A DNA stretch of 59,003 nt, filler included, from Basidiobolus ranarum (Eukaryota), in assembly GCA_040143965.1 (NCBI GenBank). It is 9 parts of 9 records of this genome, joined end to end, with 100 filler letters (N's around TTAATTAATTAA, not from the genome) between each part and the next. Parts side by side here need not be neighbours in the genome. Positions count along the whole stretch, not along the records: positions 19,763 to 26,234 come from JASJQH010001310.1; 8 more parts are not named here. One strand, given 5' to 3'. Both the position numbers and the translations under genes were made by a program. The notes beneath the pieces were generated by a model. The model searched no databases. It had not been told where the DNA came from and saw only the letters and a program-made list of their open reading frames with translations. Shown here one piece after another: positions 1,906 to 50,850 of the stretch (the first letter of the stretch is position 1; each line of letters begins with the position of its first letter).

Positions 1906-3425
1906 GTTTCTATCGATGATAAGCTATAATAAACAAAGATGTGGACTCTGGCCAAGAGAGAATGTAAATTTAGATATAGGAATAGCTGGTGTTTTCCAAG
2001 TCAGAATGAGCTAAATTAGCTCAGAACCCTCCATACGAGTACCATTTCCCAGTCTGATTGGCATATGAAGGATGTAATGTAATATCGTAGATTCAATGTA
2101 ATTGGGGTAAATTACTCTGGAAGTAGCGTTAAATCATGCATATTGAAAAAGGAAACTGAAATGGGGAGTGGTCCAGTTGGTGGTTGGCGATCTTGATCCA
2201 ATCTCAACCGTCTCCTAAATAGCAACTATGTAATGATATTCGGGTGAAATGTCATGCAATGATTGGTCGGTATCGACGCCAAAGTGTGGGTCTCATTAAC
2301 AGAGATCTCCAGTTCAACGATGAACTTTGGGCATGATGAAACAATAGGATCTTTTGAGGAATATCGATAATATTAAATAGTCAATGTAGCATAATCCTAG
2401 GGCTCGCAACTGTGGTTACGCAAACATGTATGGCGCTTTGAAATGCGATTAAATCTGAAGGCCTTCCATGACCAAGTCTAGACTTCCAATGTTCGGCAGG
2501 TATTTCCTTCTCTTGGGCGAAAAGCAATCGCCTCATTTCTTTTCGATGCTCGATATTTAAGTGCCATGTTGTATATACGTCAAGTGACAGATCTCACTGA
2601 CCAAATAATGAGCCAATCAATATTAATGCGGGTTATCCTCTTCAATGTGGCTGAAAATCTACGGCAAAGTGATCGTATGGAAATGCTCATGTTGCAAGCA
2701 CTTCAGTTGCTCACAATAAAAAATTCATTCCAGAGGATTGCTCATATCTCATGTTCTAACATTGGCAGTAGTATCATCCGAATCTAGTAGTCAACTTTAC
2801 CATCCCCAACACTGCTAGATCCCCAAATGAGTACAGGGGACACTGCTCCCTCATCGCATGTCAAGAGTGCCTCTACTGAAAGCGTCTAGTTTTAATAGTA
2901 CTACTACACTCCAAATACCGAAGGTAGGGCAGCCTTTATGATGGTAGTGAAATTTTACTTTCAATATCAAATGCTGATAGTTATGCATTGTAATGTGTGG
3001 ATATTGTCATTAGTCATGGGCAAGGTCAACAATTACACTTCTGCCATTGTATTATTTAGTTACTTGATTAAGCCACCATTAGGGTCGAGTAGAATCGTAC
3101 TTTTCATCCGAGTTGTGTATACAAAATACATGCAAATGGGGTGAGATAATGCCGATATCCGCGCTATTTCTATTACAGGGTTGAGAAATAATCAACGCTA
3201 TATTATTCAGGATCCTAAGGATGTGGTCGCAGTTGCTCATTGGATTGTATCAAGCCAAATTCAAACCTTTGAGCTAACTTGAGAATACATGCTATTTATC
3301 TAACAGCTTCTCAAATCTTAAATATGACATCATACATGTGTCCAAGACAGTAAACAATGACATCAATTCATTGTTGCCCAGGTACCGCAAAAGTAGTCAC
3401 AGTCATACAACTTTTACGTGAGTTC

Positions 3426-3772
3426 TGTTAAAGTATTGGGGAGCCTGTTGGAAGTGGTTTGGAGAGTTTGAGAAATTGGTGGTTTTCACTGATTGATTGA
3501 TTGAGTAGAAGTTTAACACATATAGCTTTATCATGATATAAGCAAATCAATGTGTAGAATATTTCAAGAAAGGTCCCAAAAACATGTGTGCAAAGCTTGG
3601 GTCTTCTAGCACAAGTTTGAAAAATCTACATATCTGAGAACTTCCAAGTTGGTAGAAATATTTTAAGTAAATTCAAATGAGAATAATGGGTCATATCTTA
3701 GCGAAATATAAAATAGCTAAGTACTAAGTTACATATGACTATATAGGTGCTTAGGCAATGCTAACTTCAACA
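3426..3772 (-). mobile_element. Copia LTR family A, solo/partial copy (reverse orientation)
   Basis: TGTTAAAG...TTCAACA termini; matches about a dozen other copies in this window; flanks do not form a TSD. Confidence 0.85.
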
Positions 3773-3857
3773 AAACCTAATATAATGAAACCTTGATAAG
3801 TTGGCAGACTTGCATCTGTTGAAATTAGCATTGCCTAAGCACCTATGTAGTAATATA

Positions 3858-4062: not shown

Positions 4063-4835
4063 ATATATAGCTTAGCACTTAGCTACCTTATTTTTCACTA
4101 AGATAATACGCATTATTCTCAATTAGAGTTTACTTATAACATTTCTACCAAATCAAAAGTTCTAAAATATGCAGATTTTAAAACTTGTGATAGAAGCCCC
4201 ACACTTTGTGCACATATTCCTAGGACCTTCCTAAGCATATTATACATGATATTTTGCTTATATTTTGACAAATTATAAATGTCATCATTCTATTCAATAG
4301 ATCAATAAGTGAAAACCACCAATATCTCTATTTCTCCAAACCACTTTCAACAGACTCCCAAATACTTTAACAGTTTATGCATCCCAAGCTTACACTCTTT
4401 GTAATGTCTACTTCTCAAATTTCTGGAGCTTTTCACCATTATGAAAAAATGGATGGAACCAATTATCAAGTATGGTGAATCAAAATGAAAATGCTGCTGC
4501 AAGAAAAAGTACTTTGGGTCACTGTTATAGGAGAAGAAAACAATGTAAAGCTATCTGAAATCAAAGTTGTACTCCATGTTAAAAAAGAACAAAGCACCTT
4601 TGACACAATTTTTCTTAATGTTAAAGACAAGTTGCAAATTCAATGTTCAAGAGCTAAAACTGCCAAGAAGATGTTGAAAGCCTTGGAAGACATCTACCAA
4701 ACATATTCTGCTACCAACATGATCTTTCTAAGAAGACAATTCTTTAACTTAAACATGAAGCTAGGAGAAGACATTAAATCACTAATTAAAAGTCCCTACT
4801 TTGGATGAAATTGAATGCATTGGAGTACCTATTAC

Positions 4836-6497: not shown

Positions 6498-6597
6498 NNN
6501 NNNNNNNNNNNNNNNNNNNNNNNNNNNNNNNNNNNNNNNNNTTAATTAATTAANNNNNNNNNNNNNNNNNNNNNNNNNNNNNNNNNNNNNNNNNNNN
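6498..6597. other. Artificial contig linker N44-TTAATTAATTAA-N44 (also at 13089-13188, 19663-19762, 26235-26334, 32802-32901, 39361-39460, 45915-46014, 52465-52564)
   Basis: Identical 100-bp spacer with stops in all six frames; segment lengths fall monotonically 6497, 6491, 6474, 6472, 6467, 6459, 6454, 6450, 6439. Confidence 0.99.
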
Positions 6598-11133: not shown

Positions 11134-13088
11134 TGTTGATATTAGCATTGCCTAAACACCTATATAGTCATATATAGCTTAGTTTTTAATTATCATATAT
11201 TGAACTAAGATATCACCCACTATTCTCAATTGGAATTTACTAAAAGTATTTTTACCAACTTTGAAGTTCTTGTTAAAGTATTTGGCAGCCTGTTGGAAGT
11301 GGTTTGGAGAATTAGAGAAATTGGTGGTTTTCACTTGTTGATTTATTGAGTAGAAAGTTGAAAGGTATGGTTTTGTCAAGATATAAGGAGACTGACATGT
11401 AGAATGTGTCAAGGAAGGTCACAGGAACTTGTGTGCCAAGTTTGAGACTTCTAGCACAAGTTCAAATAATGCTATATATCTGAGAACTTTTAAGTTGGTA
11501 AAAAATATTCCAAGTAAATTGCAATTGAGAAAAATGGGTAATATCTTAGTGAAATATAAGATAACTAAGTACTAAGCTATATATGACTATGTAGGTGTCT
11601 ATGCAATGGTAATTTCAGCCCTCTCTCAACTACATAGTCATGTAAACTAATCCTAAGGAAGGTCTAAACATCTCAAATTTCTGTCTAGCCAATGGTGTGA
11701 TTAATATATCACCTATTATGTCTTCTGCAGAATAATAAGTTAAGTCAATAAACTTATTCTCTATAGTCTCTCTAATGAAGCAATGTATAAAATCTATGTG
11801 TTTGCTTCCATTATGAGACATGGGATTTTTAGCTAATTTGATACAATTTTGATTATTTTGAAATGTCAAAGTTGGCAAAATTTGAGAATAACCTAAATCT
11901 GTTGAGAGTTTTCTTAACCATATTGCTTCTTTTGTTGCTTCACAGGCAGTCATGTATTCAGCTTCAGTTGTTGAAAGTGCTATGTTAGGTTGTTTCTTTG
12001 AATTCCAAGAAATAGCTCCATTACAGCAAAGTAGTAAGTATCTTGTTGTAGATCATCTGTGTTCATTATATCTTTTGCAATTTGCATCTTAACATCCCAT
12101 CAGATCAAAGGTTAATCCAGAATATTTGTACTTTGAACACAGATCCACAGTACCTTTCAAGTATCTGAAAATCAACACAACTTCTATGAATTAATCTGAT
12201 CCATGATTTTGAAGATATTGGCACATAGCTCCCATGGAATATTTAATATCTGGCCATGTACCAACAATGATATACAGCAATCAACCAACCATAGATTGAT
12301 AAGGAAATATGTGGCTTTCATTTGATTCAAAGAAGGTCTGATCTGTGCCATTTTTGTTCCAGTTAAGATTTGTCTCCATTTGAGTAGATACTGGATTATA
12401 TTCTTCCTTTTTAAACTTCTTGAGTATATCTAGGATATACTTGGACTGGTTTAAAGTTATTGTTTTGGTAGTTCTATCTATCTTCATTTAGATTCCAACA
12501 TAGTGTGTCAGTTCACCAAGATCAGCCATTTTGAATTTGTTCAATGAGCTGTATTTTGTTCTCTCTAGAGTCTCTACGTCATTGGTTGCTATAATAAGAT
12601 TATTGAAATATAAGAATACTAAAACTGGGCTTTGTTAAAGTATTTGGGAGCCTGTTAGAAGTGGTTTGGAGAATTAGAGGAATTGGTGGTTGTCAATTAT
12701 TATTTTATTGAATAGAAAGTTGACATTTATAGTTTGTCAGGATATAAGCAAACTAACATGTAGAATGTGTTAAGGGAGGTCCCAGGAACATGAGTGCAAG
12801 GTTTGGGGCTTCTAGCACAAGTTTGAAAAATCTATATATCTGAGAACTTCTAAGTTGGTAAAAATATTCTAAGTAAACTCAGATTCAGAATAATTGATAA
12901 TATCTTAGTGAATTATAAAATAACTGAGTACTAAGCTATATATGACTATATAGGTGTTTAGGCAATGCTAATTTCAAACTCTCCCTCAACTAAATAGTCA
13001 TAGAAACTAATCCTAATAAAGGTCTAAATTTCTCAAATTTCTGTCTATCTAATGGTTTGGTTAACATATCAGCAATCATATCTTCTGT
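11134..13088 (-). mobile_element. Copia family A nest: forward LTR (11134-11270) interrupted by the 3' end of a reverse element (LTR 11271-11620, PPT, RNase H/RT 11630-12632), itself interrupted by a second reverse element (LTR 12633-12978, PPT, RNase H)
   Basis: RNase H ...AEYMTACEATKEAIWLRKL...SKHIDFIHCFIRE...DILITPL; RT KMADLGELTHYVGI, LNQSKYILDIL; PPT GTTGAGAGAG / GTTGAGGGAG next to the LTRs. Confidence 0.9.
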
Positions 13089-13229
13089 NNNNNNNNNNNN
13101 NNNNNNNNNNNNNNNNNNNNNNNNNNNNNNNNTTAATTAATTAANNNNNNNNNNNNNNNNNNNNNNNNNNNNNNNNNNNNNNNNNNNNGAGCCGGATCAA
13201 ATCGATTTTATTTTTGTTAGGGCTTTCTC

Positions 13230-14344
13230 TATATTGAAGCAGCCATATCTGGGAATAGCAAGAAACAACCCACTATAGCACATTCAACAACTGAAGCAGA
13301 GTATATGGCAGCATCACATACAACAAAGGAGGCTATGTGGCTAAGGAAACCATTCAAAGACTTAGGCTTTTTTCAAAGTTCACCCACCATAATTTTCAAG
13401 GATAATCAAAGTTGTATTTCTTTAGCTAAAAATCCCAAATTCCATGCTAGAAGTAAGCACATAGACATTTTACATCACTTTTGTTAAAGTATTTGGGAGC
13501 CTGTTGGAAGTGGTTTGGAGAATTACAGGAATTGGTGGTTTCATTTATTGATTTATTGAGTAGAAAGTTGATATTTTTAGTTTTGTCAATATCTAAATAA
13601 ACTAATATGTAGAATGTGTTACAAAAGGTCCCAGGAACATGTGTGCAAAGTTTGGGGCTTCTAGCACAAGTTTGAAAAATCTATATATCTGAGAACTTCT
13701 AAGTTGGTAAAAATATTCTAAGTAAATTCCAATTGTGAATAATGGATAATATCTTAGTGAATTATAACTAAGTACTAAGCTATACATGACTATATAGGTG
13801 TTTAGGCAGAGCTAATTTCAACAACTTTATTAGGGAAGCTATTGAGAATAAGCATCTACAACTACAGTACTGTCCAACTGAAGACATGCTTGCTGACATC
13901 CTTACCAAGCCATACCTCAAGCTAAAATCGTAGATTTAAGATTTAAGTTAGGATGAAGATATATGAGTATGTAGTGAGTAGGAGTGTTGAAGTTTATTAT
14001 CTTTATCATATTTGTTATCTCCATCTTTATACACCTAACTATTTCATATAGCATATATAAGCTAGTTAATATTACTTAGGCAAATATCACTTAACTGAAA
14101 ATCAGAACATATATTATATATATATATGAATATTGTGATAATTAACAATTCCATATTGGAAATTTCAAACTCATCCAAATTGCCTCAAAGATTGCTGATT
14201 TTACTCCCACAGCTGTTCTGAACACAACCCCAGTGTTAGTTTTCTGTATTTCCACCAAGATGTATAAATGCTTTATTTCTGGATAATAAATAATTATCTC
14301 ACAAAGCTATTCCCAACTCCACTTTTCTTAAGTTCCTCCAAACA
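13230..14344 (+). mobile_element. 3' end of a different copia (family B): RNase H, PPT, 3' LTR 13985-14344
   Basis: ISGNSKKQPTIAHSTTEAEYMAA...RSKHIDILHHF|IREAIENK...DMLADILTK; purine tract GAGTAGGAG, then TGTTGAAG...CCAAACA. Confidence 0.85.
13482..13823 (-). mobile_element. Full-length family A solo LTR (342 bp) with perfect TSD ACTTT inside the family B RNase H
   Basis: ACTTT (13477-13481) TGTTAAAG...TTTCAACA ACTTT (13824-13828); removing it restores HIDILHHFIREAIENK. Confidence 0.95.
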
Positions 14345-15676
14345 GCGCATATTTTCCCAATACCAATGGCATGCAATGTGCAGTCTTCTCCCATGAAAAC
14401 CTTTCTAATTGGGATTTCTTCATTATCCACAAACCAATGTTTTTCATTTGTGCAATGTTGGAAGGCTCCAGAATCAAGATACTATGTCTGAGAATCCTTG
14501 TTGGTAGTCATAGATAGAGCAGATATGAACAAGTGATCTTTTATTGTAACTACATTTCCAGATTTAGTATATTTTTCTTCTTTTGCAATTGTTTAAAAGC
14601 AAACTTTGTTTAAAAGGCCAGTTCTTTAAAGTAATCACAGAATGTGTTACTTTTCTTCTTAAAGTGCTTTTGACCTTTATAGGAAGGTTTCCCATAGCCT
14701 ATTAAAGCATTTTCTTCATTCTTTTAGTTGGATCCTGATTTGCATAAATCTTCATCTAGAAGTCTGCCAAATACATAATTTAAGGTCAAATTTTCATTCC
14801 TTGATTCTAGAGCCATTACTAGGCTCTGAAACTTGTGTGGCAGGCTATTCAGGACTGTAACTGTGATATCCTGATCAGTAGTAGGTACTCCAATGCATTC
14901 CATTACATCCACTAAAATAGTGACTCTATTAATTAGTGGTTTAATGTCTTCTCCTGGCTTTATCTTTAAGTTAAAGAATTGTCTTCTTAGAGACATCTTA
15001 TTGGCAGCAGAACTTGTTTGGTAGGTGTCTTCCAAGGCTTTCCATATCTTCTTGGCAGTTTTAGCTCTTGAACATTGGACTAGCTATTTGTCTATAACAT
15101 TAAGACAAATTGTGTTAAAGACACTTTGTTCTTTTTAACCTGGAGTAAAACTTTGGCTTGAGATAGTTTTGCATTGTTTTCTTCTCCTACAACAGTGTCC
15201 CAAAGTACCTTTTCTTGCAGCAGCATTTTCATTTTAATTTTCCAAACTTGATAATTGGTTCCATCCAATTTTTCAGAAGAGGGAAAAGTTTCAAAAATTT
15301 GAGAAGTACATATTACAGAGAGTGCAAGTTTGGGGCACATAGCCTGTTAAAGTATTTGGGAGCCTGTTGGAAGGGGTTTGGAGAATTAGAGGAATTGATG
15401 GTTTTCACTTATTGATTTATTGAGTAGAAAGTTGACATATATTGTTTTGTCAAAATGTAAGCAAACCGGTATGTTGAATGTGTTAAGGAAGGTCCCAGAA
15501 AAAAGTGTGCAATGTTTGGGGCTTCTAGCACAAGTTTGAAAAAAAATCTATACATCTGAGAACTTCTAAGTGAATTCCAATTGAGAGTAGTGGATGATCT
15601 CTTAGTGAAATATAGGATAACTAAATTCTAAATTCTATATAGCTATGTAGGTTTTTAGGCAATGCTAATTTCATCA
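14345..15676 (-). mobile_element. Decayed copia family A 5' half: LTR 15345-15676, PBS, gag, protease
   Basis: MCPKLALS...EKLDGTNYQVWKIKMKMLL; LNSLPHKFQSLVMALESR; YLDSGA protease motif; homologous to 3817-5824. Confidence 0.9.
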
Positions 15677-16043
15677 ATATCAAGCATTAGGTTGAATATA
15701 AGCAGCAATAGAAGTTAAGAAGTGACATTGAGCTTTTGTACTTCCACTCAACTAATTAAGAAATTAAACCAAAATCTTTGATTTTCATGAATAGTTGTAA
15801 ATAGCAAATGAGAATTGTTTCCATGTATTTTGATTAAAGTGAACAGAAATTTTAGGCCTTAGCAGAATATGGAGAAAATTTAGATTGGAGAATAATTATT
15901 GTTGAAGTTGATTGGTAGAGATGAAGATATTGTCCGATGATATTTGACCTCCGCAACTAAGCGCCAGCAAGTGGGCTAATTGGGCTTTTATTCATTCCCA
16001 GGATTTTCAGACTTGAAGTAGATCAGCAGATAAATGCTCATTG

Positions 16044-19662: not shown

Positions 19663-19762
19663 NNNNNNNNNNNNNNNNNNNNNNNNNNNNNNNNNNNNNN
19701 NNNNNNTTAATTAATTAANNNNNNNNNNNNNNNNNNNNNNNNNNNNNNNNNNNNNNNNNNNN

Positions 19763-20584
19763 TTTAGTGGTGCTCCAATGGATAAGATCTCATCTACCGT
19801 AGTTTTTATCTGATTTATATGATTAAGCATAGAATCATCAGGATTCATCTGAATTGAGAACAATTCTCACCTAAGATATAGCCTATTAGCCAGACTTTTA
19901 GCTTCATATAGTCCCTCAAGTGTTTTCCCAAGCATTTTGGATGTTTTTGGCTGATTGTATGTGCCTCAATGGAGAATCTCTGAGATGTAGACAAAGTGTA
20001 GAGAGTGCTTTCCTCTGCTTCTTGTGAAAGGCAAGGATAGCTTCTGGTGGTTCCTTTGGCTCTATTTCTTCTCCTGGAACAAATCCCCAAAGGTCCTTAT
20101 CTTCTAGCACCATTTGCATCTTGAACTTCCAAAAGTGAAAGTCTTGAGCATCAAACTTCTCTGTGGATGCAAAAACGTTGGTAATAGTACTGGTAGACAT
20201 TCCATTAAGAGCTAGCTTGGGGCTCATAACCTGATAAAAGTGTTTAGGGGATTTGGAAGTGCTTTGGACAAGATTTGGATTTGTGAATTGGACACTTAAG
20301 TTTTATTGAATTGAATATGTCCTATTTATAGTTTACTATGAAATAGGACTATTGGACATGCTTAGATCATAACAAACATGCCTATTAAGCATGGGTGAAA
20401 ATTTGAGATGATTTGGAGAAGTTTTGAGAAAATAGTGAAAATTGGTAAAAGTGATCTAATTGATATTTCTTTCAATTAGAGCAATAGACACACGTTTTGG
20501 AATAACAAAATTGAGTGCTAAATAATCAGAATATGTAAAAACTCACTACTAAATAATGAGTTGCTATTACACCTAATTTCAACA
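19763..20584 (-). mobile_element. Copia family D 5' end: LTR 20232-20584, PBS GGTTATGAGCCCC, gag
   Basis: MSPKLALNGMSTS...EKFDAQDFHFWKFKMQMVLEDKDLW; LTR homologous to 20661-21010 and 49940-50291. Confidence 0.9.
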
Positions 20585-21010
20585 TAGTTAAACCAAAATT
20601 TGATTTATTAAGATATTAATCAGGTAAAAGATATATACAAAATGATTAGTTGAGTGGGAATGTTGACATAAGGCCAATAGCAATTTGTTGTTAAGTAGTT
20701 AGTTTATTCCTATTCTGATTAGTTAGCAGTCAATTTTGATATCCAAAAATGTGTGTTATTGCCCTAATTCATCAAAATATCAATTAGATCATTTTAACCA
20801 ATTTTCACTATTTCCTCAAAACTTCTCAAAATCACCTTGTACTTTTACCCATGCTTAACAGGCATGTTTTCTATGAACTAAGCATGTACAATAGTTCTAC
20901 TTCATAGTAAACTGTAAACAGAAAATACTCAATTCAATAATACTTAGGTGTCTAAATAAAAATCCAAAGATTGCCCAAAACACTTCCAAATCCCCTAAAC
21001 ACTCTTATCA
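20585..21010 (+). mobile_element. Copia family D 3' end: pol tail, PPT and 3' LTR (20661-21010)
   Basis: TTGAGTGGGAA then TGTTGAC...CTTATCA; inverted copy of the adjacent LTR. Confidence 0.85.
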
Positions 21011-22750
21011 GTTTGTTTGTATATACAGTCTCTTCTTCTGATGTGAAGCCCTCACTGAATGGGTTAACCAGCCATTGCTGCTGGTGAATAGTTGAACATG
21101 TCAATGCAGAATGTCTCACTGAGGTTTGTGCATGGGATTTGTTGCTACTTCAACATCATTAGAATCCTCATCTCTTTTAAGTGGCTTTGGTCATGGTTGC
21201 ATGGCAGTATGTGTTTGAGCTAGTTGTTTACCCTGTGGTTTGTGTTAGGCAGTCATTACTTCTTAAACAACTAAAGAAGCCTCATTACTTTCAACTGGTT
21301 GTTGCCATGGTCAAATGGCAACACAATTTGTAGCAAGTCTTCTGCCTTGAGGTTTGCTTTTGGTAGTCCTTTCCTCTTCAACCATAGTGGAAGCTTCTTC
21401 TCTTTTAACAGGCCATGACCTCTGTTGCATGGCAGAATACATTGGCAGAGATTGTCTACCTTGAGGATTGTGTTCAGCCATTGTGGCTTCTTCAAGCTCA
21501 GTAAGAGCTTCACTATCTCTCTCAATTACCCATAGTCTTGATCTCATGGGAATATGAGTTGTAATGGATCAAAACTCAGTACTTTGTTCTCAGATATCAA
21601 ATCTTAATCCAACAAGGTGGGAGGTGCAATGTTTCTTGCAGTTGGTCTTTTTTACTGTTCGATGGTAGTACAAGTTAAACTGATATGCCTGTCTGGTGGC
21701 ATGTTGCTTGGAGCAGACTCTTCTCCTGATGTATAAAGCTCACTGGTTGGTTTGGTGAGTCAAGTCAATAGTGCACAATGATCTGTGATGGTGTGGCTCA
21801 TCCTCTTTATGGTTCTTCAGCAACTGCTTGCTCTTCATCAAAAACAGAAAAATATCATGGACTCTTCAAAGCAGACTTTGCTGTCAATGTGTTTTACTAG
21901 CAGATGAACCAACTTGTTGGGCTCTTGATATGTACTGCTAGCATATGAAGTAACTCTTTGGGCTCTTGCCCTTGTTGGAGGTGTGACCTTAATTCTAGTG
22001 GGGAGTGATGTAGATTCATTATCGGAAATAGAATTTATTGTCAGGAGTCTCTTTGATTGGGAGTGTTCTAGTATGTCTGTGCAAAGGTCAAGACTGCTGC
22101 AATTTGCCTTTGGGAATATCTTTTAACTCAATATGTTGTCTTGCTTTTGTTTTGACTTCTCTGTTGATTACTCTTGGCTAAGTGTCCTGAAATGTTGATT
22201 TGAACTCTGAAACCTCCAACAACAGTTGCTGCAGAGTCTCATTGAATAGTGGTAGATATCTTTCTAGAGCATTTTTTGCCGCTAAAGCCCAGGTTGGAAT
22301 GGCTGCTTCCTGTCCATAGAGGCAAAAAGGCAACTGGAATTGCAACTTTTTGCACTCAAAATCCAAGTTCCTAATTTTCCATTCACAAGTTCTAGCATCA
22401 AGAGTTTTATTGTATATTTTGTTGCAGACTTCTGAAGGCATGAAGATATAGCATTCCCTCCAAAGCAGATTCAAAAGTTTCTTTGACTTTTGTCTAATGG
22501 CCCCTTCCCCACCTTTTGTCAAGTTTATCAATAACTCCCATTTATCCATGCAAGAAGTCATAGTGGACACCGGCGCATCTGTAACATTGTTATGCACATG
22601 CTGCTTTGCACCACAAACACCTTGATTCTATTGTGTGTGCATAATGTTGATAGTGGTAGTTTCTGTGTCAAAGTAGGTAGTGAATCAGTGAGACTCTGTT
22701 TCAACATGATATCTAGCCCCCATATATATCTATGATATTAAATCTCATTG
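21011..22750 (-). mobile_element. Decayed accessory ORF region downstream of the CACTA transposase, with ~117-bp (39-aa) tandem repeats
   Basis: ORF fragments 22178-22597 and 21311-21547 (PQGR...WPVKR repeats); homologous to 51750-52464 on another contig; CpG-poor. Confidence 0.55.
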
Positions 22751-22799: not shown

Positions 22800-25700
22800 A
22801 ATTAATTTCCTACATTGTGATCAAGCATAATACATTCCACATTGACCCTATTCAATATGCAAGTCTAATAAATTGATTCAGATCGAACTATGATTACCTT
22901 TGTTGGAGCAGTGCATATAAAATTTTCATGCAATTTCACATGATTCCAATAAGTAGGTTTGTTAACACAAACAAAAATTTTATTATGGAGAATGCGAGGA
23001 ATTTAACCCTGGTATTTAAATTCTTGGATAAATATCTTACACAAGCTAGTGCAATCTCTATTGATCCAGCCCAAAATAAGATTAGTGTCATGCTCTTCAT
23101 CTACTCTAAAAGGTCTTTCCTCATTAATCCAAAAGTAAATACTCACTTTCCTATGACCACCTTAGAAACTATATTTGAGAAAAACTCTGGCTCATATTCT
23201 CTGATACCTACCAGTAAGCAGCTAGTCAATTTGTTTTGTTACTTCAAAATATATTGTCCAATCAGTTTTCAGTGCTCTATTATTGGGTGTAAAAGTGGGA
23301 AAAGCTTCTGTACCAGGCTTTGTGTAAGTGAGAATTTTCTAGCTTCAGTGGTGAATGACTCCTAATTCCTTCCATTTCCTGCAGTTTTTCCCGATAGAGT
23401 TCATATCACAAGTATTCTTGACACATTTGCTGTGAGAGTTAATAGACCCAAAAGTAATCAAAAGCTATTCAATTCTATCAAGTACAAAGCTTACTGTGTT
23501 AAGTTCCAGGCTTTGACAGATTTGGAGGCAAACATCATTTAGTTTGAGAGGCAACACCCTGGGAGACACCACCAAACATCTGAAATTTTGTATAGCACTG
23601 AGACTTGGCAAATGGCTGACTATTGTTACTGTTTGCAATGAGAATAAGCTCTTGGATTTTGGCAAATATCCTTATAGAATTCTGCTAAAATATCCCCAAT
23701 GTGCAAAAAAAAGTGTCCTGCCACAAGTAGATGAGTCATCGTTCAAATAGATTACCCCATGGACAATATAATAATACAGCATATGTTGATCTATCTCACC
23801 AAGAAGTCCGTCTTGCAGCTTTCCTTGAAATACCATCAGATTATGACACAAATAAATTAGTCCATACTATGGAGGTACTTACTCTGTGTCCATGGATTGG
23901 GTTTTGTTGCTGTTATTGTGCTTAAACAATGTGAAAACCCATGAACAAGTTGCAAAGAGCCCCTTGTTGGAAGGTTAATATACTCTGGAGTCTCCTTAAC
24001 CCTTCACCTTACATCCATCACCGATTTGGCTGCTACATTTTAAATCAGATTAGCATATGGTAACACTGACAATTTCTCATGGAGTATCATTTCACTGCAT
24101 GTGTGCTCCATTGGGAACTCCTAGAATGTATAACCAGGGCTTATAATCCCTAAGCATTGTGAAAGATACAGAAGGAAATTATTGAATACCAGCATAGATT
24201 CAGTTTATCTTCTTCAAACCTGTAATAAAGTTTTTTGTATCCAATTACAAAAAATCTTTGCACAGTTGCTATATATGCCTGAGATCTGCCAATGTGAGTT
24301 GATGCCAAAAGAATATATTAACAATATCCACAAACAACTCATAGTGATGCCAATACTCATCAGGCAGAAATCTTTTCAACATTCCACTTGAATATATACA
24401 AAACCAATACTTCCAGTCCTTACATTTAAATAGATGCCTAGATGAGTGCATGTTGATGGGAGTCCTGGTTAAATATGATGGTATCTTGACATTTTCAAGA
24501 ATTTTATCCATCAATTCCAATTTTGGTCCCACTACAAATGGCTAAGTCATATTAAATTTTCCACTGATAGCTGAGTAAATAGTATTGGAATGTTGTTGAA
24601 TAATAAGTGCATAGTCCCTATTGGGAAGCTGTGGCTTCAGTCAATCCTCTTTAGCAATCTAATCTTAGGCTTACAGCTACTACCAAGGTTGATGTTAGAT
24701 TGACTATTTGGTATATTGCTATCAGCAATTATGTTGAAATATGACCAAAGTCTGGATGGTAAAATGAAGGAGTTTAGTTTCGTATTTGGATAGTAGCAGT
24801 GTGAATGCCTGCTAGAGAAGACTCCATTGATTTGACAAAATCTCCAGCAAGAAAGTGCATTGTGCCCACAAAAACCTCCAACTTTACTGATGGCAGGAGT
24901 GTCACCAATATATACAATGACATTAGCTTTAACAAAATATTCACCCATATGAAGTCCAATAGATAACCATTCAAATTTGGCAATCAATGGCTCCAAGAAG
25001 CTATCTATAAGCACTGGTGATTTTGGTCTGGATATGATGGATAGTATCAAAATATTATGACTCTTATACTAATCAGAAGGAGGCAGATTTAAGTTGATTA
25101 AAATTATTGGCCAGCAAGCCTTTTCAACAGTATATTTGTTTAGTAAGAAACCATCCAGAACCAATGAAAATGCATTATCATATGTGTTCTCAAAGAAACC
25201 TTGACCTTTCAGATTCTGGTAGCAATATACATCAAGTACATTGGTAAAACCATCAGCTTTATGGTGAGTCTTTGTTATGCAATCAATGATCTATGAACTT
25301 GTTCTTGGTGATAGTTCCAGATTGTGCTGTATAGAACATATTGGATAAAGTATTCTAAAATTTATGTGGCACAATTTGGCACTATCCAGTATCCCAAATG
25401 GCTCATTCATATTGAATTTTCCACTATATAGCTGATTAAGCAGTATTGGAATGTTGTTGAATAGTAAGTACATAGTGTCTATTTCGAAGCTGTGGCTTCA
25501 GCCAGTCCTCTTCAGCAATATAATCTTAGGCTTACAGCTACATCAAGGTTGATGTTAGACTGACTATTTGGTAAGTTGCTATAAGCAATCATGTTGAAGT
25601 CTGACCAAGGTCTGGATGGTAAAATCAAGGAGTTTAGTTTTGTATTTGGATAGTAGCAATGTGCATGCCTGTTAGAGAAGACTCCATTGATTTGACAAAA

Positions 25701-26234
25701 TCTCCAGCAAGATCGTGCATTGTGCCCACAAAAATCTCCAACTTTACTGATGGCAGGAGTGTCACCAATATATACAATGATATCAACATTAATAAAAAAT
25801 TCACCCATATGAACCCCATTAGATAACCGTTCAAATTCCACAATTAAAGGCTCCAAGAAGCTATCAATAAGCACTGGTGATTTAGGTCCAGATATGATGG
25901 ATAGTATCAAAATATTAGGACTCTTATACTGTTCAGAAGGGGGAAGATTTAAGTTGATTAAAATTATTGGCCAGCAAGCCGTATCAGCAGTATATTTGTT
26001 TAGTGAGAAATCATCCCAAGCCAATGTAAATTCATGATCATATGTGTTCTCAAAGAAACCTTGACTTTTCAGATTCTGGTAGTGATATCCATCAAGTATA
26101 TTGGTAATACCATCAGCTTTACAGTGAGTACTTTGGTATTGGATCAATGATCTATATTTGGGTGATTTCATCAAAACTTTAAGACGGGGAATCAATGGTA
26201 TGTAAGCCAAATATGAGTGATATTTACCTGATTC
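22800..26234 (-). mobile_element. CACTA/En-Spm (Tnp2/Transposase_21-type) transposase pseudogene with internal duplication
   Basis: AYIPLIPRLK..DG..WPIILINLNLPPSEQYK..NILILSIISGPKSP..DSFLEPLI.E..GDTPAISKV..F.GHNA..CRFC-like; downstream FKCKDWKYW and EFPME; many stops. Confidence 0.85.
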
Positions 26235-39469: not shown

Positions 39470-40966
39470 TTACGTTTCTGTAGTGTCAGTTGATTCGTTT
39501 GTTGATTCTGTTGTGTTATCTTTTGTGGTTGGTGTTTCTGTAGGACTAGAGGACTCCGTTGAAGCGGCAGTTGAGCTGGTAGATTCGGTCGGTAGGTCAG
39601 TAGGACTGGTGGACTCAGTTGAAGCAGTTGTTAAGATTACCGATTCAGTTGGGTCCACTGTCGAGTTGGAAGAGTTGGTGGAATTATCAGTAGGACTGGG
39701 AGACACAGTTGAATCAGTAGTTGAGCTTACAGATTCAGTGGGAGTCGCGGTCGATTCAGTAGACTCAGTTGGGTCAACTGTTGAGCTAACAGACTCCGTG
39801 GGGGTCACTGTAGTTTCGGTTGGGGCAATGGTCGAGTTGAAGGATTCGGTAGAATTATCAGTAGGACTGGGCGACTTAGTTGCATCAGTCGTTGAACTAG
39901 CAGATTCAGTCGGTACGTCAGTAGAACTGGAAGACTCTGTTAAATCAGTTATCGAGCTTGCAGACTCAGTCGGATTAACAGTCGAGCCAGCAGATTCGGT
40001 AATAGTAGATGTTGCTGTAGTAGACTCTGTTTGAGTAGTTGCTGAGCTGGTGGACTTGGTAATTGTGTCTGTAGCGCCAGCAGATGGAGAACTCGTTATG
40101 GAGGGTTTGGTGGAAGTTGAGTTGCTTGTAGTTGCATTGGAGGTGGTTGTGTTGCTTGTAGTGGGCTTGGTAGTGGTCGACTTGCTTGTAGTGGATTTGG
40201 AGGTGGTCGACTTACTTACAGTGGATTTGGTGGTAGTCGACTTGCTTGTAGTGGGCTTGGTGGTAGTCGACTTGCTTGTAGTGGACTTGGTGGTGGTCGC
40301 CTTGCTTAAAGTGGATTTGGTGGTAGTCCCCTTGCTTATAGTGGGCTTGGTGGTGGTCGACTTGCTTGTAGTGGATTTGGTGGTAGTCGCCTTGCTTGTA
40401 GTGGGCTTGGTGGTGGTAGACTTACTTGTAGTTGACTTGGTGGTAGTCGCCTTGCTGGTAGTAGATTTAGTGGAGATTGGCTTAGTGGTTGATTTGGTTG
40501 TAGTGAGCTTGATTGATGTAAACTTGCTGGAAGTTGGCTTTTTGGAGGTAGTTTTTAATGAAGTCCTAGCTGTGGTAGATTTCGTCTGCGTACGTTTTGT
40601 AGTTGTAGCCTTTGTAGTGGTACGCTTAGTGTAAGTACGCTTGGTTGTAGTGCGTTTAGTAATCGAGCTTTGAGGCTTCTTACATTCTGATTTGCAGCGT
40701 GTTACGCAATGCTCCTTTGTGTTTCCGCACCTTTATAAAAAATGTAGCTGTATTAGTCCGCTGAGCACAAAATGAGCTTTATTGATTGCCACTAAGAACT
40801 TTGACTCTACTTACCATCCATAAATTGAGCAACACGTATTTGAAGGGCAAGTATAATTCACTCCTTTGATGACCCCGCATCGTCCATTCCTCGAGACAAC
40901 GGCTTGAATTGATACAACTTGAAGTAGTATTGCAACAAATACCAAAGCCCTCCTTGAGAAGAGCAT
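39470..40966 (-). CDS. Secreted hevein/CBM18 chitin-binding protein with long Thr/Ser mucin-like tail (about 470 aa, 2 exons)
   Basis: Signal peptide MLFSRRALVFVAILLQVVSIQA; 8-Cys hevein CGVIKGVNYTCPSNTCCSIYGW|CGNTKEHCVTRCKSEC; intron 40731-40814; in-frame T/S repeats to stop at 39470. Confidence 0.88.
40150..40470 (-). repeat. 30-bp coding tandem repeat (TTTK[S/P]TTSK[S/A])
   Basis: cttgcttgtagtgg(a/g)(c/t)ttggtggt(a/g)gtcg repeated about 10 times. Confidence 0.9.
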
Positions 40967-46014: not shown

Positions 46015-46555
46015 CTTATTCCTTGGCACCATACCCTTTCGTTAACTTTCATTGTTTCCAAGTAGTCTTTACATATTCAAGGTTTTTTCCACAATGATCA
46101 TCACTGTATCCTGCAAAATTTTGTGCATCTGGAGTGCTAGCCTATTTCAGAACTAGATTTAGAGTTCCACTCAAATACCTGAATGTTTGTTGTGCTGCAC
46201 TTTTGTGCTTGGATCAGGCATTTGGGAGATATTCACCAACAATTTCCACTCCCACAGCAATGAGTGCTTTATTTAATCCATACATAAATTTTTGCAGCTT
46301 ACAGGCCATATCAGAGTGTTTTGGGGCAACAAATCCATATGGTTGCTCCATATATATCTCTCTTCTAGATCTCCACTCAAAAAGGCTGTATTTACATCCA
46401 TTTGATGTAAAACAGGGCTTGGCATGGCTGAAACTGCCAGGATTGATCTAATGGAGCTAAACTTATCTACTGGAGCAAAGGTTTGATTACAATCCTGTCC
46501 TTGAGTCTGGGAATTACTTTTTACAGTTAATCAAACTTTATATCTTTCTATATTC
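46015..46555 (-). mobile_element. Copia reverse transcriptase fragment
   Basis: TFAPVDKFSSIRSILAV..MDVNTAF...EEIYMEQPYGF...CKLQNLCM; antiparallel homologue of 49200-49450. Confidence 0.8.
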
Positions 46556-49500
46556 CAAACTACTTCCAATACCCCTAAGCACATTTATCAAGAAATGGGC
46601 CCCAAGCTAGTAGTTAAAGGTTTGTCTACCAGTACTGTTACCAATATTGATGTATCAACAGAGAAGTTTGATGATGAAGACTTTACACCTTTGGAAGTTT
46701 GAGATGCAAATGGTGCTGGATGACAAAGACCTTTGGGACTTTTTACAAGAAAAGAAATAAAGCCAAAGTGACTCACAGAAGCTACCCTTACCTTTCTCAA
46801 GATGAAGAGGTAAGCACTCCCTACCCTGTGTCAGCATCCTAGAGACTCTCACTTGAGGCACATACACTAAGTCAAAAGAAATACAGACTGCTTGGAAATA
46901 CTTAGGAACTAGATGAGACTAAAAGTCAGGATAACCGGTTATATTTTAGATTAAATTAATGCTCAATTCAGATGAATATTTATTATTCTAAGGCTAATCA
47001 TATAAGTTGGAGAAAAGCTATGGCAGATCAGCTTGCATCCATTAGGGCATCTCTAAATGCAGATGACTTAGTCACAACTCTGCATGGGAGCATGCCAGAG
47101 AGGTTTGTGGACCTTATAATTGCCTTGGAATCAAGATCAGAGCCATCAACAATGGAATATGTTGGTGCTAGGCTTTTGAATGAGGAATTAAGGAGATCTT
47201 ATTCTCTGCAAAATAATGCAGATCAGGCATTATTTGGAGCTGTAAAATGACCAACAAGCTTCAATGATGGCGTCCTTAATAGAAAATCAATCATCTGCAA
47301 GTTTTGCAAGAAACCAGGCCATTTAATCAAAGATTGCAGAAGTTGGATTTTGCCACTAAGCTAAAATTGGAACAAGCAAATCAAGTAAGCACTGATAGGG
47401 ATCATTTATTTGTGTCTGCCTTCTCAGTAACCACTATGGAAGACTCTGAAATATGGTACGTTACTTCACAAGCTTGCCAGCATATGTCAAAAAAGAAAGA
47501 TTGGTTTTCCAGCTTAAAGCCCACCCCAATAACAAAAGTTAACTTGAATACTGACTATGAACTAGATGCAGCTGGTCAGAGCACAGTTGTGCTCAATTTA
47601 GGCCAAAATTCAGCCACACCATCTGCAAAATTTGAAGATGTACTCTTTGTACCAAATATAGCTAAAAATCTACTCTGTGTCAGCAAAGTGACAGCTTAAG
47701 AGCTAAATTTTGTGTTCAGCAAGGCAACAACTCAAGGACTAAATTTTGTTCTCTGCAAGGCTGGATGCACTATCACAGATAAAGATGCCACCAAATTAGC
47801 TGCTGGGACCAAAACTTGAACCTCATACAAGCTAGATAATAACAACTTGCATTCTGAACATGCAAAATTGGCCAAAAACAGTGAAACAAGTTGCCAAACA
47901 TAGCATAGATGATTTGGCCACATTGGGGAACAAAAATAACCAAAATGATCCAAAGCACTTTGTTTCAGGCTTAGAAAACAAATTATCACCAAATTGGATC
48001 TGTCTGAAGTTTGCATACATGGAAAACATCACAGACAGCCTTTTTCAAAATCTGGAAAGATCAAATCCACTCAGAATTTTGCCTTGATTTATTCTGTTCT
48101 ATGTGTGCCCATGTAAAACATCTTGCTATATGGCTATTAGTTCTTTGCCACTATTAAAGAAGACTAAACAAGATTTACTATGGCTTTTTTCCCAAATCAA
48201 AGTTTGAAGCCGTAAGTACAATAAAGCACTACAGAGCAATGGTACAGAATGAGTTACTACAAAAAATAAGGGTACCAAGGAGTGATAATGATGGAGAACA
48301 CTGCTCTAAGGACTTTGCTAGTTTTTGTTCTAAGCATGGAATTGAACAACAAACTACAGAATATTTTACCTGACAGCAAAATGGAATTGCAGAATGTGCT
48401 ACTAGGACTATAGTGGAGATGGCAAGAGCAATGTTACATGATCAAAAGTTAGACAATCAATATCAGGTTTGAATCACCCTCCATTGCAATCTTTATCAAA
48501 AAAAATGCTAAACAAGATTATTACAAAATTCTACTCCATTTGAAGCTTTATAGGGATCAAAATCATGGGCTGATCATCTCAAGATCTTTTGCTCCATAGA
48601 ATATTGCTTAAATGTGGCTCAAATATTCTCTAAATTGGAACCCATAAGCAGAAAAAGCACAAATCTTGTTTATCATGATGGATCTAGAGTCCATTAACTG
48701 TTTGATACTATGAGGCAGAAGTTAATCAAGGGCAGATATGTGATTTTTGATGAGAAGCAAATATTTCATCTAGGATCACAGTTCTTAATCCAGAAACCAC
48801 AATCAGCACTATTCCAGAATTGTCTGGCTAAATACCAGTTTTTTGTGAGCCCAATTCACCCAACTTCCAGGTCCAACTATATTAGAAGATGACTGAGGAC
48901 ATAGAAGATTGTCTAGAACAAGAAATCAGCCAGGGGACTGGTGGAACTTTCTGTGACAAGCCATAGATTCTAGGTCAAGCTCTGGAGTGTCCAAAATTAG
49001 TATCAAGGGAAAAAGAAATGTCAGATGATTTTTCCTTGCTTCATGACATTCAAAACATGGGGTTTAAGTCCTCTATCATCAGGAATAAAGCCAATAAGTT
49101 GTTAATGGATCTACAAAGTCAAAAACCAAATTGATGGAACCATTGAAAGGTACAATGCAAGATTAGTTGCATAAAGTTATTTCCAGACACCAGAGTTGAT
49201 CTAAATCAAACCTTTGCTTTAGTGGCTTGGCTTAGTTCCATTAGATTGCTCCTGGCACTCTCAGCCATGGAAAACATTCATTTATCTCAAATGGATGCAA
49301 AAACAACCTGTCTGAATATAAATCTAGAGGAAGAGATATGTATGGAGCAACCAGATGGATTTGTTGAACCAAAACACCCTGATATGGTCTGCTAGCTCCA
49401 TAAAATGCCATAAGGATTCTAGCAAGCACCCAGAGTATGGTACAACAAGATTGATATCTATTTGGATTCACTGGATTTCAAAAATGCTGAGCAGATCACA

Positions 49501-50291
49501 GTATTTAAATCAAAACAACTGGAAATAGAATTGTTATCTTGATTCAATGCATGAATGACTTGCTCATAGCCACACTCAATCCAGAAGCACTTAATCAGAA
49601 GAAAAGAAGCATACTGAACCAATTTCAGTAGACACATATGGGTGCAAGGAAGTTACTTACAGACTCAGGTTACATGCAAATGCATTACTGCATTTGAAGA
49701 TTATCAAAGTTCTATTTCATTAGCTAAAAACCTTTCATTTCATGCTAGACCATAGCTTATAGATGTTAGGCATCATTTTCATAGAGAAGCAATAGAAAAT
49801 GATATAATCAAGCTGGTCAATTGCCCTTCTGAAGAAATGATTGTGGATATCTTAACCAAACTTTAGCTAAATATAAATTTGCATCATTAACATATAAGTT
49901 AGGTTTGATGAAAATACAAAATAATCAGCTGGGTGTGCATGTTAAAATTCAATAAATGGCAACTTATCATTTACTTGTTATTTTATTCATATTCTTACTG
50001 TTTAGCACCCAATTCTGACACACAAACACATATGTTTATTGGTCAGCTTGATAGGAATATCAATTAGATCACTTTTACCATTGTTTGATTTTTTCTCAAA
50101 ACCTCTCCAAATTACGTTGAATTCTTGCCCATGCTTAACAGGCATGTTTGTTATGACCTAAGGATATCCAATATTCCTATTTCATAGTAAACTATAAGTA
50201 GGACATATTCAAATCAATACAACTTAAGTGCCTCATTTACAAATGTAAATCTTGTCTAAAATACTTCCAAATCTCCAAAACACTTTAATCA
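46556..50291 (+). mobile_element. Near-complete decayed copia family D: LTR end (46590), PBS, gag-PR-IN-RT-RNaseH (internal deletion), 3' LTR 49940-50291
   Basis: CKFCKKPGHLIKDC knuckle; DVLFVPNIAKNLL; RSDNDGE and QQNGIAE integrase motifs; ERYNARLVA; EEICMEQPDGF; HARP*LIDVRHHF; copia domain order. Confidence 0.9.
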
Positions 50292-50850
50292 GTTTATGAG
50301 CTCCAAGCTAGCTGCAAAAGGAATTTCTACCGGTACTATTACCAATGTTTTTGAATCCACAGAGAAGTTTAAAAGTAAAGACTGTCATTTTTGAAAGTTC
50401 AAGATGCAAATGGTGCTAGAAGACAAAAACCTTTGAGGATTTGCTACAAAGAAGAAATATGGCCAAAGGGACCACCAGAGGCTATCCTTGCTTTTAACAA
50501 GATGCAGTGGAAAGCACTCTTTACTCTTTTTCTAGATCTCAGAGACTCACAATTGAGGCTCATACGCTCAGCCAAAAATGTCTAAACTGCATGGGAAACA
50601 CTTGAAGAACTATATGAGACACAAGGTTGGGCTAATAGGCTAATTGTTAGGCAAAAACTATTTTCAATTAGGATGAATTTGATAACTTTATGGCTGATCT
50701 TATAAATTGAATACTACTATAGCAGATGAGCTCTCATCCATTGGAATTCCTCTCCATGAAGATGACTTAGTAATGACACTACTTGGGAGGCTGCCAGACA
50801 AGTTTGGGAATCTCCTCAATGCCCTAGAATCAAGATTGGAGCCATTAAGA
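50292..50850 (+). mobile_element. Second family D PBS + gag directly after the 3' LTR (tandem element sharing an LTR)
   Basis: ATCA|GTTTATGAGCTCCAAGCTAGC then MSSKLAAKGISTGTITNVFESTEKF...DDLVMTLLGRLPDKFGNLLNALESR. Confidence 0.85.

Follow-up and report, generated by a model that had tools for sequence, protein, structure and literature searches.

The window, by which we mean the whole 59,003-nucleotide stretch of Basidiobolus ranarum DNA analysed here, harbors five LTR-PBS-gag junctions of Ty1/copia elements, which fall into two LTR families, designated A and D. These are ordinary Ty1/copia elements of a known kind, namely, those with what is probably a half-tRNAiMet primer-binding site (PBS). 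The features on which the analysis is based are listed below, with the type of evidence in brackets where applicable.

20232 to 20568, minus strand: 3' part of a family-D 5' LTR, ending ...TTTTATCA at 20232 (self-BLAST and comparison of LTR ends)
20324 to 20330, minus strand: TATAAAT box, 103 nt 5' of the PBS ATG, with an AATAAA about 20 nt downstream of the box (motif)
20215 to 20231, minus strand: PBS GGTTATGAGCCCC(AAGC) matching the half-tRNAiMet (anticodon stem-loop) type, the sole intact copy in the window (motif search)
20225 to 20227, minus strand: ATG within the PBS, preceding all other in-frame ATGs of Gag; G at -3, A at +4 (translation)
20198 to 20200, minus strand: Met10, the second in-frame ATG and a possible alternative Gag start, kept in the related proteins P0003, P0005 and P0115 (alignment)
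19919 to 20227, minus strand: Gag remnant of this family-D copy, 103 codons open from the PBS ATG, with DUF4219 and the N-terminal part of Retrotran_gag_2 (translation and Pfam)
4063 to 4372, plus strand: family-A 5' LTR, ending ...ACTTTAACA (self-BLAST and LTR ends)
4373 to 4475, plus strand: degenerate PBS (GTTTATGCATCCC) followed by a Gag remnant, ATG at 4377 with 33 codons open, in-frame TAA at 4368-4370
15345 to 15677, minus strand: family-A 5' LTR (self-BLAST and LTR ends)
15095 to 15344, minus strand: degenerate PBS (GGCTATGTGCCCC) followed by a Gag remnant, ATG at 15340 with 82 codons open
46554 to 46699, plus strand: 37-nt LTR remnant, degenerate PBS (AGAAATGGGCCCC) and Gag remnant, ATG at 46595 with 35 codons open
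49864 to 50291, plus strand: family-D LTR, serving as the 3' LTR of the copy at 46595 and as the 5' LTR of the copy at 50296 (self-BLAST, LTR ends and tblastn)
50292 to 50391, plus strand: degenerate PBS (GTTTATGAGCTCC) followed by a Gag remnant, ATG at 50296 with 32 codons open

All five copies are dead, with ORFs of only 32-103 codons from the ATG. At the copy with its ATG at 20227, only about 450 bp of gag are left, and a pair of N runs at 19663-19762 cuts this remnant. For the copy at 46595, tblastn returned collinear matches to a 1316-aa relative (P0031, residues 17-677 and 805-1271) over positions 46677-49860, which apparently represent gag-pol remnants. The other copies retain gag only. 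As the window contains no active element, the local biological consequence of the arrangement described below is nil.

The surroundings of these copies are complex. The family-D LTR at 20232-20568(-) is interrupted on its far side by an LTR on the opposite strand at 20585-21011(+), which ends in ...TATCA followed by GTTTG, without an ATG. Head-to-head LTRs are found beside a 5' LTR in both families, at 3425-3773(-) / 4063-4372(+) and at 20232-20568(-) / 20585-21011(+). Two D copies are arranged in tandem over 46554-50848 with the LTR at 49864-50291 common to both, and an inverted RT fragment (46265-46551) occupies the place of most of the 5' LTR of the copy at 46595. Four family-A LTRs in the same orientation (-) are located at 11270-11617, 12633-12977, 13482-13824 and 15345-15677, with an RT/RNase H remnant (12625-11648) and a gag piece (15340-14350), both on the minus strand, between them; the region 11270-15677 is either a tandem array of LTR-internal-LTR units or a set of nested copies with deletions. 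Elsewhere, the window, which looks fungal, encodes a PDR/CDR ABC transporter, a WD40 protein and the C-terminus of a propionyl-CoA-carboxylase in long ORFs without introns, and decayed LTR retrotransposons are scattered among these. A tandem array with a 15/30-nt periodicity spans 39494-40545, and a 178-aa ORF of V/L/D/E repeats at 40098-40634 had no Pfam match. A direct repeat of about 760 bp with 89% identity is formed by 24535-25294 and 25395-26155, and since a 219-aa ORF at 25512-26171(-) matches Pfam Transposase_21 (tnp2, E 3.4e-13), we assigned the region 24535-26171 to a DNA-transposon remnant. Paired runs of 44 N, 12 bases apart, recur about every 6.56 kb (6498-6597, 13089-13188, 19663-19762 etc.), amounting to 16 runs and 704 N, and have the look of deliberate masking, not of assembly gaps.

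At all five junctions, namely, 4377(+), 15340(-), 20227(-), 46595(+) and 50296(+), the ATG begins at the fifth base past the LTR-terminal CA, with four bases between them, which reproduces both the positions and the spacing given in a preliminary description of this DNA. The 3' CA terminus was fixed independently by 10 LTR copies, which are nested or truncated: the family-A terminus ...ACTTTAACA occurs in six copies, two of which continue into PBS and gag and four into unrelated DNA, and the family-D terminus ...ATCA occurs in four copies, three followed by PBS and gag and one by other DNA. The five ATGs are all in the reading frame of the Gag remnant (MHPKL.., MCPKL.., MSPKL.., MGPKL.. and MSSKL..), and their translations (MHPKLTLFVMSTS, MCPKLALSVICTS, MSPKLALNGMSTS, MGPKLVVKGLSTS and MSSKLAAKGISTG) continue into the copia Gag N-terminal domain; the alignment of the five copies shows no indel from the ATG as far as the DUF4219 motif. 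In a Pfam search with a 99-aa D remnant, PF14223 (Retrotran_gag_2) was matched above the cut-off with an E-value of 1.9e-9, and PF13961 (DUF4219) slightly below it (E 1.5e-5, 25.0 bits versus a cut-off of 27 bits). Translations and Pfam matches thus agree with the earlier claim that all five ATGs share the Gag frame. Since tblastn with two Gag-bearing relatives as queries detected no further Gag N-terminus in the window, the count of in-frame junctions is five out of five; at each of them the PBS ATG is in frame with Gag, open into Gag and without an earlier in-frame start. The in-frame TAA of the LTR end (4368-4370), which had been taken to exclude an unspliced start further upstream in family A, is present in both A copies as codon -3, in support of that argument. 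On the other hand, the LTRs of the two families had been described as unrelated, and this has to be corrected, as their last ~45 nt can be aligned with two to three gap columns. Families A and D therefore share ancestry, and we dropped the idea of five independent coincidences: the arrangement is common to A and D by descent, so the five in-frame copies represent one inherited arrangement rather than five independent events, and the junctions are not independent trials.

We searched the window for the 12-mer PBS motif with up to two mismatches and found seven sites, compared with 3.99 expected from shuffled sequence; only three of the five junctions are among these seven. The motif alone is therefore not significant, and it is the position right after the LTR terminus that counts. 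The perfect GGTTATGAGCCC is found only at 20220-20231(-), and the four other junctions are degenerate, with four mismatches in the copy at 4373 and three in that at 46591. Accordingly, the motif GGTTATG(A/G)GCCCC reported before for all five copies holds for each of them as regards its position, but as a perfect sequence for one only. We take GGTTATG[AG]GCCC to be the complement of the anticodon arm of tRNAiMet; a search of the window by ARAGORN returned no tRNA genes. The position of the PBS ATG within a PBS that appears to be of the half-tRNAiMet type is supported. Because such a PBS pairs with the anticodon loop, it must contain the complement of the anticodon CAU, and the PBS ATG is in this sense a by-product of the priming mode. 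Half-tRNA-Met PBSs are reported by Neumann et al. 2019 (PMC6317226) for the plant Osser and Bryco lineages and part of Gymco-II, and for about 2% of the plant elements surveyed there.

We then considered the leader upstream of the PBS ATG. Upstream of the PBS ATG, none of the five copies has another in-frame ATG before the first in-frame stop is reached, at codons -3, -3, -26, -31 and -13. We ruled out a Gag start upstream within the LTR, as in Tca5, because the frame is interrupted by these stops (codons -3 to -31) and no ATG is met on the way to them. If all frames are considered, the nearest upstream ATG is at -98, where it overlaps the TATA box, or further away in four of the five copies; the D copy at 50296 has one of its own at -53. 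In the A copy at 4377 (4274-4280) and the D copy at 20227 (20324-20330), a TATAAAT is placed exactly 103 nt 5' of the PBS ATG, and it is degenerate in the other copies; this spacing is equal in one copy of each LTR family despite the diverged sequence between box and ATG. Folding of the RNA from -70 to +50 was no better than that of dinucleotide shuffles in four of the five copies (z +1.0 to +1.4), the fifth having a z of -0.9. The PBS AUG is flanked by G at -3 and by A or G at +4. Given TATAAAT at -103 and the lack of an ATG between them in four of the five copies, transcripts very likely have the PBS AUG as their first AUG, if transcription starts where the TATAAAT would place it. According to the scanning rules laid out in PMC5902531, a first AUG in such a context should capture a large share of the ribosomes.

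Relatives of the window Gag were collected by a HMMER search with the 103-aa D remnant against 1.84 billion representatives, which gave 528 matches; the counts that follow are from the 150 matches listed. Seventeen of the 145 Met-starting Gag proteins among them begin with MSP or MGP, in records whose N-termini come from gene callers favouring the first ATG of an ORF, and this is an excess over the 0.39% background of [SG]P in the same proteins (binomial 5e-20); another three begin with MNP. ATG AGC CCN and ATG GGC CCN are the PBS read in frame. Five further proteins among the matches listed, with an open upstream frame, contain an internal Q-[VI]-M-[SGK]-x, in four cases with Q-V-M, which is the translation of CAG GTT ATG, that is, of the LTR-CA followed by GGTT and ATG. 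The distance from the PBS-type Met to DUF4219 ranges from 11 to 31 codons between clades and is always in frame in these matches. Eight of the 20 listed proteins starting with MSP, MGP or MNP, including a full-length 1348-aa polyprotein (P0066), lack any further Met ahead of the conserved Gag domain, and the other 12 have a second Met there. A homologue search with P0066 yielded three further proteins, none with an MGP start, one of which (P0152) reads QQV-MGS and has an upstream ATG.

The closest relatives among the matches listed are P0003, P0115 and P0005, with 76%, 82% and 44% identity, respectively, to the window Gag. All three keep the pattern M-x-P-[KE]-L-x-x-x-G-M-S-T with the same 9-codon spacing as in the window. 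By their source names, P0003 and P0115 are Basidiobolus ranarum records, and two Gags with an MSP start, P0036 and P0136, are Phytophthora ramorum and Aphanomyces astaci records; MSP-start Gags are thereby on record from Basidiobolus, Phytophthora and Aphanomyces. A search with P0005 against longer proteins found no homologue. These results support the PBS ATG as a genuine ORF start in several lineages, with confirmation at the DNA level that MSP or MGP would be encoded by the PBS coming from the window and from two metagenome loci (L002 and L006) only.

These loci were obtained by searching metagenome contigs with an alignment of 17 Gag sequences, and we considered the best 80 of 277 confirmed loci, most of which belong to one long-leader family. 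In L002, ...TTTCAACA (LTR end ...CAACA) is directly followed by GGTTATGAGCCC, the PBS ATG starts an ORF of 764 codons that is still open where the contig ends, and the 153 nt upstream of this ATG contain no other ATG; L002 thus apparently carries the fused arrangement in a clean and intact form. In L001, an 11-codon uORF begins at the PBS ATG, and the gag start, 20 nt downstream, is in a different frame. The PBS ATG of L004 heads an 8-codon uORF (MGPGKENT followed by a stop), with the gag start at +64, again in another frame. In L006 (69-100), the PBS ATG is in the gag frame and heads an 8-codon uORF closed by TAA, after which a single codon precedes the gag ATG of a 399-codon ORF, a spacing that suggests termination-reinitiation. 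These are the four loci with a half-tRNA PBS and a short leader, taken regardless of their N-terminus: a fused, open frame is present in one of them, another is in frame but stopped, and the remaining two are out of frame, so that the fused share is about the chance expectation, with no excess. About 60 further loci among the best 80 of 277, mostly of one large family, carry GGTTATGGGCCC with zero or one mismatch 270-2672 nt upstream of gag. The Gag proteins of this large family, found within L003-L080, start with MSSFQMESLKVMEKFDG..., and the PBS is 270-1005 nt 5' of gag in most loci, the distance in L042 being 2672 nt. In this family, a short uORF begins at the PBS ATG, e.g., MGPHQVRERTLC followed by a stop in L007. 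Because the PBS AUG is out of frame or opens a terminated uORF in L001, L004, L006 and the long-leader family, in-frame fusion is optional and not intrinsic to half-tRNA priming. No relatives were found among viral contigs, and a single weak, irrelevant match (L081) was found among genome contigs.

What we observed is the anatomy, the common reading frame, the lack of starts further upstream and the reappearance of the arrangement in relatives; from this we infer a transcription start site, initiation at the PBS AUG and priming by cleaved tRNA, and on balance we think that the PBS AUG was probably a Gag start in use in the live ancestors of these copies. The dead Ty1/copia elements of the window would once have been primed by the 5' half of initiator tRNA-Met, whose PBS would force an AUG with a fair initiation context (G at -3, A or G at +4) into the leader. 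The leader would be minimal: its TATA box is at about -103, its R-U5 is poor in G and folds weakly, and it would contain no further AUG, so that the PBS AUG would be the first to be met by a scanning ribosome. Fused in frame, this AUG would give Gag a short N-terminal extension, M-S/G-P-K-L-x-x-x-x, the first three to five codons of which would be the PBS itself, and the second in-frame Met nine codons downstream would probably yield a shorter isoform by leaky scanning. Such a fusion would neutralise an unavoidable upstream AUG. It may be one of two solutions, adopted in very compact elements; the other, seen in relatives, would be a short terminated uORF, with gag being reached via leaky scanning or reinitiation.

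An alternative is that Met10 is the only real Gag start, the PBS AUG being skipped by leaky scanning or masked by the primer, and its frame being a tolerated accident of a short leader. The triplets at codon 10 are ATG, ATA, ATG, TTG and ATT in the five copies, and as those other than ATG are each a single base from it, Met10 is probably ancestral; its presence in P0003, P0005 and P0115 favours this alternative as well. The preliminary description had rightly recorded that Met10 survives in two of the five copies; its loss from dead copies is uninformative on function, and Met10 was probably ancestral rather than dispensable. The preliminary description had also pointed to a change confined to third positions in the LAL codons, which is true of the pair chosen (15340 and 20227) but not of all six A x D pairs: over codons 6-9, these differ at rates of 0.54/0.67/0.67 at codon positions 1/2/3, without a third-position excess. 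Both arguments are therefore weak, the copies being dead and the pair having been selected. The dN/dS check of the leader proposed at that stage could be carried out by the Nei-Gojobori method on the same pair, which comprises the best-preserved copy of each family. We obtained a dN of 0.27 and a dS of 1.29 for codons 2-9 (eight codons, four of which overlap the PBS), and a dN of 0.62 and a dS of 1.74 for codons 25-82. A dN lower than dS at codons 2-9 of this one pair agrees with what was expected, but the lack of a third-position excess over all pairs does not, and the values may be taken as weakly compatible with translation of the extension.

The Met10 start is further favoured by this lack of a third-position excess, by the second Met in 12 of the 20 relatives listed with an MSP, MGP or MNP start, and by L001, L004 and L006, in which gag demonstrably begins at a downstream ATG. 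However, eight of these 20 relatives offer no alternative Met, and the extension keeps its residues and its spacing at Gag identities of 44-82%. Moreover, for an AUG with a purine at -3 behind an unstructured, AUG-free leader, scanning theory as given in PMC5902531 predicts substantial initiation. We therefore consider it rather unlikely that Met10 alone served as the Gag start, and keep initiation at the PBS AUG, probably with a shorter isoform from Met10, as the preferred reading.

A more far-reaching alternative, already raised in the preliminary description, is that the use of one AUG by both Met-tRNAi and the half-tRNA primer is a selected device, by which the RNA is partitioned between translation and replication. 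A primer duplex of 13-17 bp on the start codon would be expected to exclude the ribosome, and mutual exclusion between the primer duplex and a scanning ribosome is plausible; moreover, the fused arrangement recurs in several clades. However, regulation of this kind is speculative, and other elements with this primer type do with a PBS AUG that is not fused to gag or is located far upstream of it. In Ty1, the PBS is already part of the GAG ORF, and no codon is shared in this way (PMC4974528), so competition between translation and priming would be general rather than AUG-specific. We thus regard a selected switch as improbable. The same low probability applies to its extension to half-tRNAiMet-primed copia elements widespread among fungi and oomycetes, in which the supply of tRNAi halves (e.g., under stress) would titrate the RNA between translation and replication, and the second Met would provide Gag from primer-occupied RNAs.

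Finally, the sequence 3' of the core PBS might be kept for nucleic-acid reasons, such as pairing with the D-arm side of the tRNA or assembly of the RT initiation complex, coding conservation being a by-product. CCCAA.CT after ATG-N-G/C is indeed invariant in the alignment of all five decayed copies, and additional complementarity to the TPsiC and DHU arms of tRNAiMet 3' of the PBS is described for Ty1 in PMC4974528. However, such a constraint would cover codons 3-5 only. It would leave unexplained why the frame is kept and free of stops, why the extensions of other clades vary in length (11-31 codons) but are always in frame, and why some ORFs have no other Met; we consider this the least probable of the alternatives, and very improbable as a full account.

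Should Gag truly begin at the PBS AUG, the sequence of a host tRNA would dictate its first codons (M-S/G-P). This would be an unusually tight overlap between a cis-acting replication signal and a coding start, and would explain the MSP/MGP signature at the N-termini of copia Gag proteins. This signature could aid the annotation of element boundaries, primer types and true starts in fungal and oomycete genomes. More generally, every half-tRNAiMet-primed element would face the same design problem, a forced upstream AUG in a decent context, for which fusion and a short uORF would be the two solutions. In the literature searched, which left out the primary Ty5, Tca2 and copia papers, we found no description of a Gag start codon inside a half-tRNA PBS. 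Any novelty would lie in the coincidence of the start codon with the complement of the anticodon in the PBS, together with the MSP/MGP signature.

Several known systems can be compared with the window elements. Ty1 primes with the 3' end of the intact tRNA, so that its PBS has no AUG, and its Gag start lies upstream, in the LTR. Drosophila copia has a PBS of the GGTTATGGGCCC type and a long leader, with the gag start well downstream of the PBS. This long leader resembles that of the long-leader metagenome family, in which the PBS is 270-2672 nt upstream, and not the fused arrangement of the window. As the type member of Hemivirus, copia uses half-tRNA priming (PMC5371799), as is presumed for the window elements. 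The tRNAiMet PBS of Ty1 is located within the GAG ORF (PMC4974528), so that translation and primer annealing share the same RNA, as they would in the window elements. The plant Osser, Bryco and Gymco-II copia elements have the 1/2tRNA-Met primer type presumed here (PMC6317226). Ty5 and Tca5, the half-tRNAiMet-primed Ty1/copia elements of Saccharomyces and Candida, are similar to the window elements in their fungal hosts and in a compact layout with an ORF that reaches the LTR boundary. For Tca5, the ORF is reported to start inside the left LTR and hence upstream of the PBS (PMC4139406). This comes close to the window elements without matching them, as such a start is excluded there by an in-frame stop or the lack of any ATG.
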